From positions 1 to 23,330 of the forward strand of contig JBHLQH010000042.1 of NCBI GenBank assembly GCA_048884965.1: a stretch of DNA of 23,330 nt, read 5' to 3'. This stretch comes from Candidatus Thorarchaeota archaeon. GTDB lineage: Archaea; Asgardarchaeota; Thorarchaeia; Thorarchaeales; Thorarchaeaceae. The translations under genes and the position numbers were made by a program. Below, one piece after another: positions 321-23,330 of the stretch; position 1 is the first letter of the stretch; every line of letters begins with the position of its first letter. Below the pieces are notes generated by a model. It saw nothing but the letters and a program-made list of their open reading frames with translations, did not search any database and was not told the origin of the DNA.

Positions 321-1394
321 TTGTCGGATGGTGAGAGTGAGGAAAGGGTTCATTTGTCGTGGCTAGTATTGAGACGTGAGATCAATTATTACTCCTATAG
401 AGGAGATAGACCATTCAAACCCCTTTCGAGGGAAGTATCGCGCTTGTCAATTGACCTTGAATATGACAGGTATGACTATGATACTTCAACAGTCCCCCAT
501 ACCAGAATGGAAATGGTGAATCTGTCATTCATGAAGGAACTAAAGCAACTTACAAGCCTAAATATAGAGATAATTCATCCAAAATTGGGATCAATCTATA
601 GAGTTCCAAGCAAGATCGATTTCCCATCGATTGCGAGCATGCCTAATCTCGAGGAGTTGACCATTATCGACCCAGTGGGGGACCTTGACCTCTCGCCGCT
701 CACTAACAGGGAGAGCAAGCTGAGAAGCATCACGATCAAGTGCGTCAGGGCTTTCCGAGGGTCCTACATCAGCTTCGTCCTGATGCCAAATGGTCGTCTT
801 CCTAGAGTCAAGGACATCATAGCCCACACTGAAGGCATTGAGGTCGTACTCGATAATGGACGCACCATCCATGCTGCCTCAAGGGAGGAGCTGACTCCGA
901 ACATCACAGGGACTGGACCAGGTATAGGACCAAGAGGATTTGGCTTCGATTGTGAAACAGAACCAATGGGATATGGGAGCTTCAGACCACGTCTATTTGA
1001 CATAGTCTGGACCAAGGGAGAAATGACTGTCAATCCAGTGTTGTCTGATGATATCGAGAGAGAAGCTAGAACAGAGTTCATTGCCCCCGAGCCACAACCG
1101 CCCCACTTTGATGACTACTCATCCTCGTACAGATACTCGGTCAAATTGATCATAGAAGAAAAACCTGAGATATTCCCAGCAAAACGCTTCGACTCGGTGA
1201 TATTGCCAGAGCTACCAGACCTCCGGAGTGTGACGATAGAGAACGGCACGCTGCAGGAACTAGACCTCTCACCTTTGAAAGAAACAAGACTTGAGGAACT
1301 TGTCATCGCAGGGAATGGACTGAAACAGCTTGACCTCTCTGTGCTGAAACATGAACCAAACACGGTCACTCTGGATGAGCCGAATCTCATCTAG
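321..1394 (+). CDS. Leucine-rich repeat protein (Asgard-type LDLSPL repeats) with a central non-LRR insert
   Basis: Repeats LKQLTSLNI, MPNLEELTI..DLDLSPL, KLRSITI, DLRSVTIENGTLQELDLSPL and RLEELVIAGNGLKQLDLSVL; TTG start. Confidence 0.8.
   Translation: MSDGESEERVHLSWLVLRREINYYSYRGDRPFKPLSREVSRLSIDLEYDRYDYDTSTVPHTRMEMVNLSFMKELKQLTSLNIEIIHPKLGSIYRVPSKIDFPSIASMPNLEELTIIDPVGDLDLSPLTNRESKLRSITIKCVRAFRGSYISFVLMPNGRLPRVKDIIAHTEGIEVVLDNGRTIHAASREELTPNITGTGPGIGPRGFGFDCETEPMGYGSFRPRLFDIVWTKGEMTVNPVLSDDIEREARTEFIAPEPQPPHFDDYSSSYRYSVKLIIEEKPEIFPAKRFDSVILPELPDLRSVTIENGTLQELDLSPLKETRLEELVIAGNGLKQLDLSVLKHEPNTVTLDEPNLI
1194..1357 (+). repeat. Direct repeat copy 2 (pairs with 78..241)
   Basis: See copy 1; lies in the 3' end of the LRR gene. 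Confidence 0.95.
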
Positions 1395-1492
1395 GATACA
1401 GAAGGATATGAGAATCATTCTCCATCCCATCATGGAAGAATAATCCAAGGTTTCGCTTACTCCTTGCGACTCTAATAATATCTGAGGGCATT

Positions 1493-2014
1493 TCAAGGCG
1501 TAAAGGGGGTGTAGTTGTCTGGGTCCTCAGGATATCGATCACGATGAAGGTCCAGAAGCCGCTCAGCACATTCCTCGGGGGACTGCTCTAAGAGACTGAT
1601 GAACCATAGCTCAGAGAAATCCTTTACTGGCGTATCTTCTACCAAATATTCTTCATACTCAAGAAATCTCCAAGTAATCCCATCTGTGAGCACGAAGAAT
1701 TCATACCCAAGCATCTTGATATAGAACTCCAATCTATAGAGTGTGCTTCCATAGATGTCCCATTGTGTGCCAACAGGCATGATATCAAAAGCAATCAATT
1801 CTTTCTTTGGAGATATCCTAAGAGAGAGGTCAATCACACCAACATGATACTTCAGTACTATTTCACGAAAAGAGGTGGAAGACCATCCTAGACTACGAAC
1901 CATAGGTTCGACCAGATCCTCCCGAACATACTTTTTCTTCTTATATCGTGCAGGTTCGTTTTCTATCAGATTGAGGATGTTGTTGATAGTGAATTGAATT
2001 AGTGCCGTATTCAG
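1493..2014 (-). CDS. HsdR N-terminal-like (PD-(D/E)xK fold) protein, probably catalytically degenerate
   Basis: The frame is open upstream of the track ATG (1903) to a stop near 2045. It adds VREDLVEPM in front of VRSLGW, giving the HSDR_N-type R..L+.P+++.LGW motif. FFVLTDGITWRF is also present. Candidate CTG start at 2014 preceded by GGGGAG. Confidence 0.6.
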   Translation of the reverse strand: MNTALIQFTINNILNLIENEPARYKKKKYVREDLVEPMVRSLGWSSTSFREIVLKYHVGVIDLSLRISPKKELIAFDIMPVGTQWDIYGSTLYRLEFYIKMLGYEFFVLTDGITWRFLEYEEYLVEDTPVKDFSELWFISLLEQSPEECAERLLDLHRDRYPEDPDNYTPFTP

Positions 2015-11115: not shown

Positions 11116-12455
11116 CAGATCTAGTATTCATTTTAGGAAAAAACTGGCTGCTCTCGCTAGCAGAGATGATCGTACTCTTAGAGGACAAAGGGATTCTCAA
11201 ATCACTAAAGGATTTCTCCAAGACCACTGCTATCGTTTCATTATCTGAACCTGTACGTGATGAGGATATTGTAGATATTCAAAGCGCTCTGGGAGGGTGC
11301 TTTAAGGTTGGTCGACTGATCGAAACCTATGACATCGAAGTTGCGAGAAAGGCGTTCCCACCTAAGGGCTCACACACTAAGAGAGACCGTGATCTCCTGA
11401 GCAAATGTACATGGGCTCCAGCAGTATGGGGGAAGCCGAGAGGAAAGAAGATCAAATATGGAGTGTCTTCATACCCATCTGGTGAAGAGAACACGACAAT
11501 CGATATGAAACGGTTTACAAGAGGCGTGAACGATTTCATAAAGACCCATCTCCTTGGTGAGAATGCCAGAAGGGCAGACTATGTTATCTATGACGAACCT
11601 GACAGAAGAGACCCTAGTCGGTCAAACACAGCTCTGTGGCCTCAAACCATATCAAAGCACGGGCTTCTCAAACCACCTAATGCAGAGATACTCGCAGCAT
11701 TCACAGAAACCAATCTCTACATCGCAAAGACGGTCGCTGTGTATGACTCGATGCTTCAACAATACAGAGATGAGTCACGACCCTTCATCTCATCAGAAAT
11801 CAGTACAAGTCCCAAGATCTGTAGAACCCTATTGACCCTTGCAGGTGCCAAAACAGGGGATTCCGTATTAGACCCATTCTGTGGAACCGGGACCTTGCTC
11901 ATGGAAGCGGCATTATTGGAGATGAAATGCATAGGGATAGATCTTGATAGCAATGCAGTAGAGGGGGCTCAGACAAATCTTAGATGGCTTGGAAAGGAAC
12001 TCGGGACCTATCTGGATATTACACTGATAAAGGGAAACGCTACGGATGCGGACAAGCTGGTTGGAAAAGAAGTGGATGCTATTGCGTTTGAACCGCACCT
12101 GGGACCTGTATATCGAGGCAAACCTGATACTCAAGAGGCAATCGATGTCATGGAGGAACTTACAGTTCTTTATCGAGATACCTTGAAAGCATTAGTGAAG
12201 ATTTTGAGACCTGACGGACGAATTGCTATGACAGTTCCAGTGATTCGGGCCAAGGAAAAAGAAATCACCATTGATTTCAATCAGATGCTGAAAGGAACAG
12301 GACTGCAGCTCTACAGATTCCTCCCTGAGAAAATCATTGATGATAAATCAGAGCGACCGCGGTCTATTCGAATCAACCCTAATAGAGGTGCATTGCCTGA
12401 GAGGAAACGTGGACAAGTTGTTCAAAGACAGGTTATCATGCTTGGAAGGGGCTAG
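11112..12455 (+). CDS. Trm11/Trm-G10-like SAM-dependent RNA methyltransferase
   Basis: RD..RP, SPK+.R.L+.LA, VLDPFCGTGTLLMEA and IGIDLD; motif IV variant FEPHLGP; 4-nt overlap with the nfo stop. Confidence 0.8.
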   Translation: MTDLVFILGKNWLLSLAEMIVLLEDKGILKSLKDFSKTTAIVSLSEPVRDEDIVDIQSALGGCFKVGRLIETYDIEVARKAFPPKGSHTKRDRDLLSKCTWAPAVWGKPRGKKIKYGVSSYPSGEENTTIDMKRFTRGVNDFIKTHLLGENARRADYVIYDEPDRRDPSRSNTALWPQTISKHGLLKPPNAEILAAFTETNLYIAKTVAVYDSMLQQYRDESRPFISSEISTSPKICRTLLTLAGAKTGDSVLDPFCGTGTLLMEAALLEMKCIGIDLDSNAVEGAQTNLRWLGKELGTYLDITLIKGNATDADKLVGKEVDAIAFEPHLGPVYRGKPDTQEAIDVMEELTVLYRDTLKALVKILRPDGRIAMTVPVIRAKEKEITIDFNQMLKGTGLQLYRFLPEKIIDDKSERPRSIRINPNRGALPERKRGQVVQRQVIMLGRG

Positions 12456-13285
12456 AAGAGATACCGGACGACATCATCGAGAATGGCATATGTTTCAAGA
12501 CGATTGAGGTCGCGTTTTACGTAGACCATCGCATGCTCAAAGATCATATCACGGAATGCTTCCTTATCTGCCAGGTCCTTGGTCGCTGTGGCTACGATTC
12601 TTAGCAAATCCTCTAGGGCATCACGAAGCTTGCTATAATTAGTCTTGTAGACGTCTATGCTCAGAACCTCTACACCATTCTCATCGATAGTCACTTCTTG
12701 AAGGCATTGATTGGACTCGATGACAGGCTCGGAGAGTTCCTTAATCCGTTTCATGAGCTTCTTTTTGGTCTTCTTATCTAGCTTAATACTGAGTATCGCT
12801 CTAAAGAGATGGCTATAGACCTCCAGACAATCCATGCTCTTTCCAGCTAGAAGCGCTTCATCGGTTTCTTCAAACTGATTGACCAGTTCATCGACGAAGT
12901 TCCCAAAACGATTGAAGGTCTGGGGATTTCCATGCCAGCCGCTCAGGATTTCGTCTACAGTTTCGCCATCAGGAATCTCATTTCGCATGAACTCATTCAG
13001 AGCGTACTCAAGGATGAACCGCATATGCCCTATACGTGCTGCTTTTGATACTACCATAACAAAAAGGAGGTGCTCATTCTCCTGCCAGACGTAACGACTT
13101 GTCTCAGTATCTATGATTCGAAGGTTCTCATGAGAGGCTTTATCGATGAAGGTATGAGTAGCAGAAAGAAAGGGAGCTATCAAATCCATGTCAATCTCAA
13201 TGCCACTATAGGCTCGAGAAACGAGATTCCTACCTGTCGTCCGTTCTATCAACCAGACGCCTTGTATCAATCGTCTATCAGACAT
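12452..13285 (-). CDS. Asgard longin-like domain protein with a helical C-terminal domain
   Basis: IQGVWLIE..TGRNLVSR.Y...+DMDLIAPFLSA..TF, then beta strands LRIID/RYVW/LLFVMVV and a helix, matching the longin b-b-a-b-b-b-a-a pattern. ATG 13285 follows GAGGA. Confidence 0.7.
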   Translation of the reverse strand: MSDRRLIQGVWLIERTTGRNLVSRAYSGIEIDMDLIAPFLSATHTFIDKASHENLRIIDTETSRYVWQENEHLLFVMVVSKAARIGHMRFILEYALNEFMRNEIPDGETVDEILSGWHGNPQTFNRFGNFVDELVNQFEETDEALLAGKSMDCLEVYSHLFRAILSIKLDKKTKKKLMKRIKELSEPVIESNQCLQEVTIDENGVEVLSIDVYKTNYSKLRDALEDLLRIVATATKDLADKEAFRDMIFEHAMVYVKRDLNRLETYAILDDVVRYLF

Positions 13286-13422
13286 GGATTCCTCATCTTT
13301 TCTCTGGTATCTAAGTATGATAAGCATATGTGGGATTTAGCATCAAATTATATACTAGTGTAATATTCTCGAGAGAAAATATCCTGATAGAAAATATGAG
13401 ATATTTTGATTGATGAGAAAGG

Positions 13423-19469: not shown

Positions 19470-19609
19470 ATACATCGCCCAATTAGCGTTTGACTGCAAA
19501 ATGACGACAATATAACTTAAGCTAAGGCTGCATATTGTATGTGGTCTTGGTAATACACACGTTATTCTTAGCTATTTCAGTGATAAGATATGATACTGGA
19601 GGCACTCAA

Positions 19610-21184
19610 TTGAGAGAAGATTCGATTAGAACACCATGCCATGAATGTGATTCAAATCAAGGCACTCACCTGTGTGAAGATTGCGGCGTTGTTCTATGCG
19701 CAGGATGCCTTGAAACAAAGACAACCCAGTATACCGTTTGCAATGAGTGCCATGCAAATCTTGGTATGCCTAGTCACGGAGAACAGATCGAGTTCTGCAG
19801 CGAATGCGAATCAACAAATCTAGGAAAAGGAAGAAGAGTTGAGGAAATATGCCCTCAATGTCATTCCTCACGAATCGTCAGTATTGAAGAGAAGAGGAGA
19901 GGGCTTGCCCAGGATCTACGTAGCGCAATCATGAGCCTCCACTACGGTCACACAAAACTACGTGAATTCAACAGCTCGCTAATCTCTGCCAAACGCCTCC
20001 TAGTTTCACTCAGGATGGCAAGCTTTCTTCATTACAAGTGGCTAGAAGACAACATTGAGAGCCTGCAAGAAGAAACCTCTGCATTGAAGAATCGGATCAT
20101 GAATCAAGCAGAAATCATCTCGAAAAGAATTGCTGCTGAAACAAAGGGTCTGATTGATTATAACAGATGGACAACTGCGCAATTCCCATTCATAGAAGGT
20201 ATCACACACCGGGTCACTCAGATAGGCGACCAATACAAAGGCAATGTGGACGACGCGCTGAAGACAGCAAGAATTGCTCTTGATGATATTATCAAGCAAC
20301 TTGAAGGCTTGGACTATTACAGGAAGCGATTTTCAGGATTCTATGAGGTCACAGAGCTATCGGTCAATGAGCTTCCTGTCTGTGCACTTCCAGAAATAAG
20401 GATCACAGGTAGTGATTTCCTTAGAAATGACAAGGCTACCGGAACCTTGTACATCACCAATAGAAGGATTGTGTTCATAGCCGAAACGGGTCTTGTCCGC
20501 AAGAAGATGGAGATTATCTTTGACTTTCCGCTCCTCTACTTAACGTCGATTGAGGAGGATGGAAGATTCAGAAAACGACTGGTTCTGAAGATGAAGCAAG
20601 GAGAGGTCAAGATAGCATGTAATGAACAGACTCAGAGGGTTCTTCCAGATTACGTTGAGATAGGAAGGAAATTCGATAGATATCAGCAAACAGATCTTCA
20701 AAGAGTCAGAAAGATTGAGCAGACTGATGCTAACATAAGCGACGTGCGTATTAAGATAGAGAGCTTGGTTTATTCATTGCTATCGCCTGGCACTCAATCA
20801 ATGGATACATCTTCACAATCTAGAGACCGTTTGCCATATAGGGACTATAGAATATATGAGCAGCCAAGACCGCAAAGGCGATTCTCAGGCAACGACTATG
20901 GAGTGCCCGATTATCGTCAAGACCCTAGAATTCAAGAAGACAGAAGGAGAGAATTGCCTGTCACTCGGCCTAGTCACTATAAGACAGATCTCTCTGCCTT
21001 GCAAAGAGATGCAATGGATCTTGAGGACGCTCTTACAGCGACGAAAGAGCTTTTCAGAGCAGGCAGAATCGTTCCTGAGGACTTCATAAGAAGATACAAG
21101 GTCCTTATGAGAAACTCATATGATACAAGACAAGCAATCCAGAGACTGCAGAGCGATACGAGAACTCCAAAGTGGGAGTACTAG
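19610..21184 (+). CDS. Multidomain protein: Zn fingers (6 CxxC), helical bundle, GRAM/GLUE-like PH domain and steadiness-box-like C-terminus (putative ESCRT-I-like adaptor)
   Basis: CHEC, CEDC, CAGC, CNEC, CSEC and CPQC; long heptad helices; GTLYITNRRIVF; LEDAL...KELFRAGRI..EDFI..YK.L.R..Y..R. TTG 19610 follows GGAGG (track start 19535). Confidence 0.7.
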   Translation: MREDSIRTPCHECDSNQGTHLCEDCGVVLCAGCLETKTTQYTVCNECHANLGMPSHGEQIEFCSECESTNLGKGRRVEEICPQCHSSRIVSIEEKRRGLAQDLRSAIMSLHYGHTKLREFNSSLISAKRLLVSLRMASFLHYKWLEDNIESLQEETSALKNRIMNQAEIISKRIAAETKGLIDYNRWTTAQFPFIEGITHRVTQIGDQYKGNVDDALKTARIALDDIIKQLEGLDYYRKRFSGFYEVTELSVNELPVCALPEIRITGSDFLRNDKATGTLYITNRRIVFIAETGLVRKKMEIIFDFPLLYLTSIEEDGRFRKRLVLKMKQGEVKIACNEQTQRVLPDYVEIGRKFDRYQQTDLQRVRKIEQTDANISDVRIKIESLVYSLLSPGTQSMDTSSQSRDRLPYRDYRIYEQPRPQRRFSGNDYGVPDYRQDPRIQEDRRRELPVTRPSHYKTDLSALQRDAMDLEDALTATKELFRAGRIVPEDFIRRYKVLMRNSYDTRQAIQRLQSDTRTPKWEY

Positions 21185-21810
21185 ACACCCAATTCACGTT
21201 CTAGTGCTTTTATCGCCTCTTCAAGTCGCTCCGTTTCGCTAATCGGTTTAGTAACAGGACCAGTGGATTCGCCTATGCCAGCTTCCGCATCAATCTCAGC
21301 CATGGCTGCAGCTAAGTCTTCTGTTGTGATCTGAGCATCGCCAGTCGAATCAAATGCCTCGCCGGTGATTCCACTTTCTATCTCAAATTCCTCCAAACGG
21401 CGAGCAATCTCATCAACATTTTCGACTACCTTGGTCACATCGGTCGCGTCACCAAGAAGACCTAGTATCTTTGCCACTTGGTTCAGCGCTTGAGATGCTT
21501 GTGCAGTGGTCTGAGCTCGAGTTACATGTGCGAGAATCTTAAGGATCTGCAAACGGGATTTGTCTACTCCTAAAGCAAACCTTCGGAAGCGGATCATCTC
21601 TCCGGCATAGGTTTGATACGCTTCCATATTCCCAGTCTTTCTAGCACGTATTGCTCGGGCTTTTGTATCGCGCTCTTCTTTCTCTAGCTTGTTCCTTTGT
21701 CGCTCAAGCTGCTTTGACAGTACACGTAATTGAGATGTAACCTCATTGATATCGGGTTTCTTTCTACCCCAAGACAATGCTTTTCGTATTGGACCCAAGA
21801 TTCTCACCAT
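21181..21810 (-). CDS. ESCRT-III (Snf7 family), Vps2/24/46-like
   Basis: N-terminal amphipathic/basic helix, L..Q..KLE+EE hairpin, G..EA...YA.E+IR.R, acidic C-terminal half and MIM1-like ERLEEAIKALER tail. Confidence 0.88.
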   Translation of the reverse strand: MVRILGPIRKALSWGRKKPDINEVTSQLRVLSKQLERQRNKLEKEERDTKARAIRARKTGNMEAYQTYAGEMIRFRRFALGVDKSRLQILKILAHVTRAQTTAQASQALNQVAKILGLLGDATDVTKVVENVDEIARRLEEFEIESGITGEAFDSTGDAQITTEDLAAAMAEIDAEAGIGESTGPVTKPISETERLEEAIKALERELGV

Positions 21811-22040: not shown

Positions 22041-23270
22041 ATGTCATCGAATGGTCCAGATCGCGTCGATCAAGGTTTAAAGAATCTCCTAGACAGAGCA
22101 ATAGAGCTCGATAATCGTGGGATGAAGAAAGAAGCATGCCAGCACTATCTCAAAGCAAGCAAGATCCTCATCAAATTATCAAACTCAGCCTCACTGCCAT
22201 CCGTCAGGAAGCACTATCTGAAAAGAGCACAGGAATGTGTTGATCGCGTCCGATTCATTTCAGGAATCAAGAATATTTCAAGCGACTCAGTTGAGGGATT
22301 GAGCAAACCTGTACAAAGGAGTGGACCATCAGAGTCCACTGATACAGGTAGACGAGCAGAAGCTATCACTGAAGATGATGAAGATACCAAACGACTAAAG
22401 GACATGGTTTCTGACACAATAATCTACGAGAAGCCAAATGTCAAGATGTCCGAAGTTGCAGGCCTAGAAGATGCTAAACAAGCAATCACAGATGCAATCA
22501 TAGCTCCTATGAAACATCCAGAGCTATTCAAGGGAAAAGCAAGGCAACCTTGGAGAGGAATCCTGTTCTATGGACCAGCAGGTTGTGGTAAGACTCTGAT
22601 TGCAAAAGCAGTTGCATCTGAAGTCAATGCTACTTTCTTTAATGTTTCAGCTGCAAATATCGTGAGTAAATGGTTGGGAGAGTCTGAAAGACTTGTCAAA
22701 AGCCTATTTGAAATGGCTAGGATGAATCAACCAGCGATTGTATTCATAGATGAGCTTGATTCAGTAGGCGGCGCTCGTTCAGGTGATGATGTAGGTGGGG
22801 AACGTCGCCTCAAGACTCAGTTGCTCACCGAGATGCAGGGCCTTGCGAGTGATTCTGAAGATAGAGTCACAGTCATTGGAGCGACGAATCTGCCTTGGGA
22901 AATCGATTTTGCCCTGCGCTCTCGTTTTGAGAAGCGCATTCATGTTCCTCTACCAAATCGAATCGCGCGAAAGCAAATATTCGAGATCCATATGGAAGAC
23001 GTTGAAGTCGATGAGAATGTGGAATATGGGGAGATGGCAGACCTTAGCGAAGGATACAGTGGAAGAGATATCAGTGTGATATGCAGAGAAGCTGCAATGG
23101 AACCCATTAGGGATCTTCAAGTTACAGGACGCATGGACGAGGATCAAGAGATTGTTGAGCTGCGAAAGGTATCCAGAGAAGATTTCCTTAGAGCGATAGA
23201 GAATATCAGACCCGCAACCTCTCCCGAAGATTTGAAGAAGTATACTGATTGGGCAGAGGAGGGTTCCTAA
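22041..23270 (+). CDS. vps4: Vps4 AAA+ ATPase with an N-terminal MIT domain
   Basis: MIT (RAIELD..G...EA...Y..A..+L), EKPNV...+VAGLE.AK, PWRGIL.YGP.G.GKT, VSKWLGESERLVK.LF, IVFIDELD, ATN.PW.+D, EGYSG.DI and a C-terminal helix. Confidence 0.93.
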   Translation: MSSNGPDRVDQGLKNLLDRAIELDNRGMKKEACQHYLKASKILIKLSNSASLPSVRKHYLKRAQECVDRVRFISGIKNISSDSVEGLSKPVQRSGPSESTDTGRRAEAITEDDEDTKRLKDMVSDTIIYEKPNVKMSEVAGLEDAKQAITDAIIAPMKHPELFKGKARQPWRGILFYGPAGCGKTLIAKAVASEVNATFFNVSAANIVSKWLGESERLVKSLFEMARMNQPAIVFIDELDSVGGARSGDDVGGERRLKTQLLTEMQGLASDSEDRVTVIGATNLPWEIDFALRSRFEKRIHVPLPNRIARKQIFEIHMEDVEVDENVEYGEMADLSEGYSGRDISVICREAAMEPIRDLQVTGRMDEDQEIVELRKVSREDFLRAIENIRPATSPEDLKKYTDWAEEGS

Positions 23271-23273
23271 TCC

Positions 23274-23330
23274 GTGGGTATGCGAGAGAAGCGCAGAGAG
23301 AAAAAGAGCAAGGCAAAAGCTGAAGACGAG
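23274..23330 (+). CDS. Partial ORF directly after vps4 (truncated by the window end)
   Basis: GTG 23274 / ATG 23280 after GGAGGG; reads MGMREKRREKKSKAKAEDE with no stop. Confidence 0.5.
   Translation, partial: MGMREKRREKKSKAKAEDE

Follow-up and report, generated by a model that had tools for sequence, protein, structure and literature searches.

A Thorarchaeial Ortholog of the Asgard Znr_CC_PH_SB Family Encoded beside ESCRT Genes

A stretch of 23,330 nucleotides from a Candidatus Thorarchaeota archaeon (referred to here as the window) carries a long open reading frame next to the genes for ESCRT-III and Vps4. What kind of protein does this frame encode, and how might such a protein be connected to the ESCRT machinery? 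A preliminary description, made from the letters of the DNA, had proposed an ESCRT-I-like adaptor that ends in a steadiness box, lacks a UEV domain and was implied to be new.

The adaptor gene and its family

The adaptor gene is a single open frame of 524 amino acids on the forward strand (19610..21184). Its start codon was read from the sequence as TTG, with a GGAGG ribosome-binding site (19598..19602, forward strand) 7 nt upstream. With TTG as the start, the protein retains its first CxxC pair, and the same pair is present in 31 of 34 aligned homologs. The published gene model of ThorAB25_08990 begins at an internal Met and is without this first pair; TTG is the corrected start codon relative to that model.

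Does the adaptor belong to a known family? The homolog search retrieved 169 proteins, and conservation was assessed on an alignment (A1) of 34 of these with 48–84% identity. Over its full length, the adaptor is 55% identical to the gene at locus L040 of Thorarchaeota AB_25, the translation of which agrees at its start and end with ThorAB25_08990|SB as printed in Supplementary Data 1 of Hatano et al. (PMC9192718). The family profile also reaches Lokiarchaeial proteins of 650–700 aa (E 1e-33 to 1e-45). The surroundings of these Loki genes (L35Ae, the adaptor homolog, MetE and then ESCRT-III on the other strand) agree with the Lokiarchaeum GC14_75 neighborhood listed for cog.011556 by Makarova et al. 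(PMC10936438). As an ortholog from Thorarchaeia, the adaptor belongs to the Asgard family published as Znr_CC_PH_SB (asCOG cog.011556; ThorAB25_08990 ‘SB’): all four traits of the family were found, namely three Zn modules, helices followed by a PH domain, a steadiness-box hairpin and homology to published members. The parts stand in the same order (three CxxC Zn modules, coiled coil, PH domain, C-terminal steadiness box) and in the same ESCRT neighborhood. Nothing essential sets the adaptor apart from the family, in which Loki members are 650–790 aa long with a longer region between PH domain and hairpin. Among the sampled genomes of the phylum Asgardarchaeota, 205 of 301 contain a member.

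Znr_CC_PH_SB was described as a likely component of ESCRT-I, with a PH domain inferred to be membrane-associated (Makarova et al., 2024, mBio; PMC10936438). ThorAB25_08990 appears under the name ‘SB’ among the proteins employed in a study that included yeast two-hybrid tests (Hatano et al., 2022, Nat Commun; PMC9192718). The architecture and the assignment to ESCRT-I are thus already published, and the window contributes a further ortholog rather than a new type of protein. The implied novelty of the preliminary description does not stand. What is added here are gene-order and distribution numbers, the corrected start codon and a testable hypothesis on binding between the C-terminal hairpin and Vps22.

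Zinc module, helices and PH domain

The AlphaFold2 model of the full adaptor has a mean pLDDT of 79.5. Its N-terminal part is a Zn module (C10–C84; 19637..19861, forward strand) delimited from Pfam, the domain model and conservation. Six CxxC pairs (C10/13, C22/25, C30/33, C44/47, C63/66 and C81/84) lie where the preliminary description had seen them, and they suffice for three Zn sites. All 12 cysteines are invariant or at least 90% conserved in the 34 homologs. The proposed likeness to FYVE and B-box cysteine spacing was borne out at the level of the family, with matches that are singly below threshold. The Pfam family zf-B_box was matched by 31 of 31 members (best E 5.3e-7), an ANCHR-like B-box by 27 of 31 and FYVE weakly by 26 of 31 (best E 0.0061); the double zinc ribbon (DZR) was likewise matched by all 31. 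On the window’s own adaptor, zf-B_box reaches 16.3 bits, where 24.1 would be needed. The basic PI3P motif R(R/K)HHCR is absent, as had been noted before; the FYVE-equivalent site reads THLCEDCG (family consensus ATHxCEDCG). The domain model (pLDDT 83.8) gave no significant structural match with Foldseek (best E 0.036) or VIA-wide (best Z 3.8), and its top structural rows are zinc-ribbon proteins with Z ≤ 3.8, below significance. The Zn module resembles a B-box by sequence and a zinc ribbon by predicted structure. The Zn parts of the family have been described as three Zn ribbons (Makarova et al., PMC10936438).

The Zn module is followed by three long helices (residues 92–136, 143–178 and 189–240; 19883..20329, forward strand), modeled by AlphaFold2 as a coiled-coil or three-helix-bundle region. 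PLDDT values there mostly lie between 85 and 96 by block, and the region is strongly conserved in the family. A TRIM-like coiled coil or a BAR-like bundle had been suggested for this part. The long helices were recovered in the model; the BAR alternative was not supported, with no BAR chain among the Foldseek or VIA matches listed for the helical region. The matches listed were to DH domains only (rmsd 12–22 Å). Kinship with RhoGEF proteins was considered and rejected: the top whole-model Foldseek rows are DH-PH proteins with a TM of about 0.2 and an rmsd of 17–26 Å, which amounts to a generic likeness of helices followed by a PH domain.

The PH domain (residues 242–360; 20333..20689, forward strand) belongs to the GRAM/GLUE subclass according to AlphaFold2, VIA-align, Foldseek and Pfam. 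A seven-strand sandwich with a C-terminal helix was modeled at residues 256–358. The strand GTLYITNRRIVF, which starts at G278 (nt 20441) and had been read earlier as the signature of a GRAM/GLUE-type PH fold, was confirmed in its place, and the Pfam counts and structural matches agree with that reading. With VIA-align, the domain matched the PH-GRAM domain of MTMR2 (Z 12.3, rmsd 2.9 Å over 107 residues), Lam6 (Z 11.3) and the GLUE domain of EAP45 (Z 11.1, rmsd 3.6 Å over 107 residues, 17% identity), and with Foldseek it matched 2hth_B (TMt 0.60). By Pfam, bPH_3 was matched by 32 of 34 members, GRAM by 21 and Vps36 GLUE by 15, in each case below the curated cut-off. The PDB search with the PH-domain profile gave nothing under E 0.8.

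The adaptor thus shares with Vps36/EAP45 a PH domain of the GLUE/GRAM subclass and, as in yeast Vps36, zinc fingers in the same polypeptide. It differs in that its zinc fingers are N-terminal rather than inserted in the PH domain and in that it has no Pfam match to the winged-helix EAP30 domains, which are encoded by a separate vps22 gene. The ligands of eukaryotic GLUE domains, PI3P and ubiquitin, are not expected in Thorarchaeota. The phosphoinositides bound by eukaryotic GRAM/GLUE domains are not known from archaeal membranes. No lipid-binding motif was identified in the adaptor. Basic residues K275, R286, R297, R319 and R321 of its PH domain are invariant.

Two conserved helices stand behind the PH domain in the AlphaFold2 model (residues 363–391; 20696..20782, forward strand), and D362, R367 and R380 are conserved in this region. 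They lead into a linker with a high content of R, Y, P, D and Q (residues 395–458; 20792..20983, forward strand). The linker had been recognized by its composition; it is predicted to be disordered (pLDDT <50) and is the sole unconserved, gap-rich stretch of the alignment, variable in both length and sequence.

The C-terminal hairpin and its predicted pairing with Vps22

The adaptor ends in a steadiness-box-like helical hairpin (residues 461–483 and 489–517; 20990..21160, forward strand), which emerges from the AlphaFold2 model, the Pfam family Vps23_core and a Vps22 docking model. The stretch that the preliminary description had likened to the steadiness box of TSG101 corresponds to residues 468–510. 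Vps23_core is the top Pfam family for the hairpin, matched by 19 of 34 members (best E 1.9e-4; E 0.0033 on the window’s own hairpin fragment), with scores of 15.3–17.8 bits that lie below the gathering cut-off of 26.8 and so do not amount to a curated match. Mod_r/Vps37 comes second (9 of 34 members); both are ESCRT-I steadiness-box families. With the family profile, the yeast Vps23 core chains 2p22, 2f66 and 2caz matched the same stretch (E 0.11–0.45), and distant members gave weak C-terminal matches to Vps23_core (E 3e-4 to 6e-3). The similarity between the hairpin and Vps23_core is real at the family level, though no curated match is reached. A generic SHOCT hairpin had been named as the outcome that would speak against a steadiness box; Vps23_core stood on top and SHOCT was absent among the 25 Pfam families listed for the hairpin. 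A helical hairpin is a simple fold.

What might such a hairpin bind? The N-terminus of this genome’s Vps22 matches positions 2–60 of Pfam VPS28 (E 0.0095), and Asgard Vps22 has been described as fused to a steadiness box (Makarova et al., PMC10936438). When the hairpin was predicted in complex with a 100-residue N-terminal piece of Vps22, the ipSAE was 0.78 against 0.00 for the best control, although the predicted complex resembles the solved yeast Vps23–Vps28 core and the score may reflect this likeness rather than real binding here. Among solved complexes, 58 of 80 reached the mark set for ipSAE, as did 2 of 110 mismatched pairs. In the docking runs, the partner had a pLDDT of 82 and the contacts agreed across three runs. 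In the predicted interface, the ASIATLD helix of Vps22, which is invariant, meets a conserved face of the hairpin made up of F492, R494, R495, Y496 and L499. The hairpin is thus predicted to dock on the Vps28-like hairpin that is fused to Vps22. In the text of the two-hybrid study, an SB–Vps28 interaction is given for Loki and Thor and an SB–Vps22 interaction for Loki only (Hatano et al., PMC9192718); the latter statement counts against a Vps22-based explanation.

Set beside the observed domain anatomy, the membership in the family and the linkage to ESCRT genes, the pairing suggests how the adaptor could work. We consider it fairly likely that the adaptor is a UEV-less, ESCRT-I-like protein that is placed on a membrane or target and forms, through contact of its hairpin with Vps22, a bridge to ESCRT-II, ESCRT-III and Vps4. 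The GRAM/GLUE-type PH domain would set the adaptor on the membrane or target, probably assisted by the Zn module and the helical bundle. The hairpin, tethered by the flexible linker of about 65 residues, would pair with the Vps28-like hairpin at the N-terminus of Thor Vps22, as Vps23 pairs with Vps28 in the headpiece of eukaryotic ESCRT-I. Vps22/Vps25 (ESCRT-II) and then ESCRT-III and Vps4 would be brought to the site without recognition of ubiquitin. Membrane binding and this order of recruitment we infer by analogy. The UEV-less, ESCRT-I-like adaptor of the preliminary description is itself supported by the domain calls and the linkage to ESCRT genes.

The likeness to Vps23/TSG101 lies in the steadiness-box hairpin at the C-terminus, behind a long helical region, and in the predicted pairing with a Vps28-type hairpin. 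Unlike Vps23/TSG101, the adaptor has no UEV match in Pfam, and its residues 1–91 are the Zn module; it lacks a proline-rich region like that of eukaryotes; its PH domain is placed between the helices and the hairpin; and its helices are modeled as an intramolecular three-helix bundle rather than a single stalk helix. It is conceivable, if short of probable, that ESCRT-I and ESCRT-II are collapsed in Thorarchaeota, with the steadiness box seated on a Vps22-fused Vps28-type hairpin and a ubiquitin-independent PH/Zn adaptor delivering Vps22–Vps25, ESCRT-III and Vps4. If true, this would be a minimal ESCRT-I/II supercomplex, and the headpiece contact would be older than ubiquitin sorting. The idea of a two-protein bridge is partly implicit in the Vps22 steadiness box of Makarova et al. 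(PMC10936438) and in the two-hybrid tests of Hatano et al. (PMC9192718).

Gene neighborhood and competing explanations

The adjacent ESCRT-III and Vps4 genes of the preliminary description were both recovered. The ESCRT-III gene (Snf7 family, Pfam Snf7 E 9e-13; 21181..21810, reverse strand), an ortholog of ‘ESCRT3A’ ThorAB25_09000, stands tail-to-tail with the adaptor gene with a 4-nt overlap. A second ESCRT-III paralog is encoded on C5. Divergent from it is vps4 (22041..23270, forward strand), with Pfam and NCBIfam matches to MIT, AAA and Vps4_C. The first 17 codons of vps25 (23280..23330, forward strand) close the window and continue on contig C30, the first 77 nt of which are identical to the window end (23254–23330). 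The reading frames of C30 match Pfam ESCRT-II (E 1.7e-11) and EAP30 (E 3e-14), and vps22 (748..1530 of locus L001, reverse strand) lies downstream of vps25 on the opposite strand. Thorarchaeota thus possess ESCRT-II (Vps25 and Vps22) beside the adaptor gene. A six-frame search of the own genome with Pfam VPS28, ubiquitin and UEV gave nothing at E ≤ 0.001, and control genomes were equally silent, which makes the search uninformative on absence.

How far is this neighborhood conserved? Across 69 Thorarchaeota species loci, ESCRT-III stands beside the adaptor in 66, vps4 follows downstream in 60 and vps25 with vps22 in 57, in the same order; the loci short of ESCRT genes all stop too early to show them, but for one. 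In four distant homologs (4/4 loci), ESCRT-III lies no more than 1.6 kb away on the opposite strand, among otherwise unrelated neighbors, and is the only neighbor retained. Synteny with vps4 had been proposed as a check, and a lack of linkage to ESCRT genes had been named as evidence against the adaptor; since the linkage is kept within Thorarchaeota and also in distant lineages, that objection does not hold. Loki-type loci keep ESCRT-III alongside the adaptor homolog and not vps22/vps25, so that ESCRT-III, and not ESCRT-II, could be the partner conserved most widely.

Could the adaptor recruit ESCRT-III directly? In Sulfolobus, CdvA recruits CdvB. The adaptor would, in the same manner, bind the membrane and recruit the adjacent ESCRT-III for division or vesicle budding, with ESCRT-II dispensable. 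This would fit a convergent ESCRT-III gene as the sole neighbor conserved across distant lineages. It is also in keeping with the C-terminus of a single distant member, which weakly matches the coiled-coil family Pfam CdvA (E 0.014). Like CdvA, the adaptor has a coiled coil and may, by analogy, be membrane-proximal, and it is encoded next to ESCRT-III and Vps4; the hairpin of CdvA has been reported to be similar in sequence to the steadiness box (Makarova et al., PMC10936438; 2023 preprint). Crenarchaeal CdvA, however, is built differently: it carries a PRC barrel at its N-terminus, binds the winged helix of CdvB through a peptide at its C-terminus and has neither Zn module nor PH domain. The Pfam scan and the AlphaFold2 model of the adaptor showed no PRC barrel and no recognizable C-terminal ESCRT-III-binding peptide. 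Moreover, the assignment of the ESCRT-III neighbor by BLASTP was ambiguous, and it may not be the same paralog in the Thor and the Loki-type loci. Direct recruitment is compatible with the Vps22 bridge, and we regard it as rather unlikely.

A TRIM-like B-box and coiled-coil scaffold or E3-type regulator, which would target proteins rather than membranes and use its hairpin only to oligomerize, is very improbable. The B-box and ANCHR-like B-box counts, the weak matches to RING, PHD and B-box chains when the PDB was searched with the profile and the word ‘RING’ in the domain key of Supplementary Figure 8, among schematics of Asgard ESCRT-I proteins in Hatano et al. (PMC9192718), would fit such a protein. 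The predicted Zn structure, however, looks more like sequential zinc ribbons than like a cross-brace, though with no significant match, and Makarova et al. (PMC10936438) speak of three Zn ribbons. Ubiquitin is reported missing from Thorarchaeota by Hatano et al. (PMC9192718), and neither the PH domain nor the linkage to ESCRT genes would be explained. That the protein is not ESCRT-related at all, with a generic C-terminal hairpin and a gene order of general Thorarchaeota synteny only, is hardly credible: every domain match is below threshold and ArgRS and the TldD/PmbA pair are as syntenic as the ESCRT genes within Thorarchaeota, but the ESCRT-III linkage persists in four distant lineages where the other neighbors are all different, Vps23_core and Mod_r lead the Pfam families for the hairpin, and its predicted docking on a Vps28-like hairpin left the controls at 0.00.

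The bridge through Vps22 is the preferred explanation for the adaptor. The family unites modules distributed by eukaryotes over ESCRT-0, -I and -II. It is prominent in Asgard lineages reported to be without UEV-Vps23, as in Loki- and Thorarchaeia, or without ubiquitin, as in Thorarchaeota, and it bears on the origin of eukaryotic ESCRT-I and ESCRT-II, a significance already stated in the literature. Elsewhere in the genome, a second match to Vps23_core was seen (C8, E 0.5).

An adaptor gene of a published family

The adaptor gene (19610-21184, + strand) is a single open frame of 524 codons that most likely starts with the TTG at 19610, and a GGAGG (19598-19602, + strand) lies 7 nt ahead of this codon. 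The preliminary description, made from the sequence alone, had proposed an ESCRT-I-like adaptor here, and this feature proved real and correctly read. Its family and architecture have already been published, and the finding is thus a correct rediscovery. Makarova et al. (2024; PMC10936438) described the family as 'Znr_CC_PH_SB' (asCOG cog.011556), in which three Zn ribbons are followed by a coiled coil, a PH domain and a steadiness box. It was reported in several Asgard lineages and in no eukaryotes. The authors considered it probably ancestral and likely to be part of ESCRT-I, and they expect its PH domain to associate with membranes. A 2023 preprint (10.1101/2023.07.25.550441) used cog.011556 as a steadiness-box family and reported that Loki- and Thorarchaeia lack UEV-Vps23. 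In Hatano et al. (2022; PMC9192718), Supplementary Data 1 prints a member as 'ThorAB25_08990|SB', listed among the study proteins with the Vps22, Vps25, Vps4 and two ESCRT-III proteins of Thorarchaeota AB_25; two-hybrid tests of the Thor set formed part of that study. The translated AB_25 gene (L040:5824-7398) agrees with the printed sequence at its start and end and is 55% identical to the adaptor.

A database search returned 169 homologs of similar length, and those that are named come nearly all from Thorarchaeota MAGs. When 34 of these, with identities of 48-84%, were aligned, the cysteines of the six CxxC pairs (C10 to C84) proved invariant or at least 90% conserved. Conservation is very strong across residues 90-392, gives way to gaps and variable sequence at residues 395-458 and returns in the last 60 residues. 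The positions first assigned to the cysteines, to GTLYITNRRIVF (G278, nt 20441) and to the C-terminal stretch (residues 468-510) were correct. In the published model of ThorAB25_08990, translation begins at an internal Met (MCEDCG), which leaves out the first CxxC pair. That pair is present in the in-frame sequence upstream; this sequence opens with TTG, as does the window gene. The same truncation was found in several database entries (P0011, P0064 and P0101), and constructs built from any of these models would therefore be without one Zn knuckle. The family profile matches 205 of the 301 genomes sampled from the phylum (71 of the 90 high-quality ones), unevenly distributed, with some families nearly saturated and others empty.

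Predicted domain anatomy

The AlphaFold2 model built from the 34-homolog alignment (mean pLDDT 79.5) comprises a beta-rich Zn region (residues 1-91), three long helices (92-136, 143-178 and 189-240), a PH fold of seven strands and a C-terminal helix (256-358), two further helices (363-391), a disordered stretch (395-458) and a helical hairpin (461-483 and 489-517). The Zn module is labeled differently by each source: three Zn ribbons by Makarova et al. (2024), 'RING finger' in the domain key of the ESCRT-I schematics of Hatano et al. (2022), and FYVE/B-box in the preliminary description. By sequence, Pfam scans of individual members match zf-B_box and the double zinc ribbon equally often (31/31 each), followed by ANCHR-like B-box (27/31) and FYVE (26/31). 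When residues 1-95 were modeled separately (pLDDT 83.8), no significant structural match was found, and the best rows were zinc-ribbon proteins. The basic motif was correctly described as absent: its position reads THLCEDCG, and a FYVE-type PI3P site is therefore excluded.

Among re-aligned Foldseek matches, the PH domain is closest to the PH-GRAM domain of MTMR2 (Z 12.3, rmsd 2.9 A, 107 residues, 17% identity), followed by Lam6 (Z 11.3); the EAP45 GLUE domain scores Z 11.1 (rmsd 3.6 A, 107 residues), and numerous further PH and PTB domains fall within 1-2 Z units. Pfam scans of the 34 members matched the PH region to bPH_3 (32), GRAM (21) and Vps36 GLUE (15), and the hairpin to the two ESCRT-I steadiness-box families, Vps23_core (19; best E 1.9e-4) and Mod_r/Vps37 (9), all under curated cut-offs; the case stands on consistency across the family. 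A generic SHOCT hairpin, the alternative raised at the outset, is not among the 25 families listed. The family profile aligns across the hairpin with the solved yeast Vps23 core (2p22, 2f66 and 2caz; E 0.11-0.45). In the distant homolog P0126 (508 aa, locus L080), the hairpin (residues 441-504) matches Pfam CdvA (E 0.014) and not Vps23_core, which agrees with the published idea that the hairpin of CdvA is related to the steadiness box.

Linkage to ESCRT genes

The adaptor gene lies tail-to-tail with an ESCRT-III (Snf7) gene (21181-21810, - strand), overlapping it by 4 nt, and vps4 (22041-23270, + strand) is divergent from the latter. Contig C30 of the same genome opens with exactly the 77 nt that end the window (23254-23330). 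The contigs therefore join, and vps25 begins at 23280 and runs on into C30, with vps22 behind it in the reverse orientation (L001:748-1530, -). Across 69 species-level Thorarchaeota loci, ESCRT-III is next downstream of the adaptor in 66, vps4 is downstream in 60, and vps25 and vps22 in 57; all loci without these genes, except L059, end before they could show. L059, on a complete chromosome (CP070658.1), is the sole locus with room where vps4, vps25 and vps22 are absent within 8 kb after the adaptor and ESCRT-III pair, and it looks like a rearrangement that split the cluster.

Unrelated upstream genes (ArgRS and two TldD/PmbA) are equally syntenic across these loci, and Thorarchaeota synteny alone is thus weak functional evidence. 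A stronger test comes from Loki-type and other Asgard genomes, which carry distant homologs (profile E 1e-29 to 1e-97). In all four loci examined, an opposite-strand ESCRT-III gene lies within 1.6 kb downstream and the other neighbors all differ; the linkage to ESCRT genes is kept both within Thorarchaeota and in these distant lineages. Two of these loci (L078 and L081) have exactly the arrangement tabulated by Makarova et al. (2024) for Lokiarchaeum GC14_75, where the family member has L35Ae on one side and MetE plus ESCRT-III on the other.

When loci L078-L081 were compared by BLASTP with the window copy and L082, the ESCRT-III beside the adaptor in Loki-type loci appeared closer to the second ESCRT-III of the window's genome (contig C5) than to the window copy, and both paralogs are adjacent in L080. 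Published names for this Loki neighbor disagree, with ESCRT-IIIA in Hatano et al. (2022) and Vps20 in the table of Makarova et al. (2024). Elsewhere in the window, a 291-aa protein (12452-13327, - strand), whose one match is a weak longin match (Fuz_longin_1, E 0.0074), may be a divergent longin-like protein; the distant Thor loci L006 and L007 carry an unannotated 277-aa gene in the same position, flanked by methyltransferase and tfb.

Vps22 as a candidate partner

The Vps22 of this genome probably starts at a Met conserved in 54 orthologs. Its N-terminal 60-residue stretch matches Pfam VPS28 positions 2-60 (E 0.0095), in agreement with the remark of Makarova et al. (2024) on a steadiness box fused to Vps22 in Asgard archaea. 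When complex prediction was applied to this piece and the adaptor hairpin (alignments A4 and A2), the pair reached an ipSAE of 0.78 vs 0.00 for the best control, a mark that 58 of the 80 solved complexes attained, as did 2 of the 110 mismatched pairs, but the yeast Vps23-Vps28 core is solved and the score may therefore reflect likeness alone. The partner pLDDT was 82, contacts were consistent in 3/3 runs, and in the predicted interface the invariant first helix of Vps22 meets the hairpin at its loop and second helix. The prediction supports, and does not demonstrate, binding of the hairpin to Vps22. In the proposed mechanism, the adaptor would sit on the membrane through its PH and Zn domains, and its hairpin would then engage the Vps28-like hairpin of Vps22, leading through Vps25 to ESCRT-III and Vps4, the whole chain operating without ubiquitin. 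The main rival is a direct, CdvA-like recruitment of the neighboring ESCRT-III by the adaptor, suggested because ESCRT-III is the one neighbor kept across lineages; it is compatible with the Vps22 chain.

Two other long open frames of this genome (782 and 700 aa) contain EAP30-like matches (G000:C5:47721-48269 and C7:58742-59074), and a 780-aa frame contains a second Vps23_core match, though a very weak one (E 0.5; C8:95147-95278). Judging from these matches, the three frames may encode multidomain ESCRT-related proteins of the kind described in Asgard archaea by Makarova et al.
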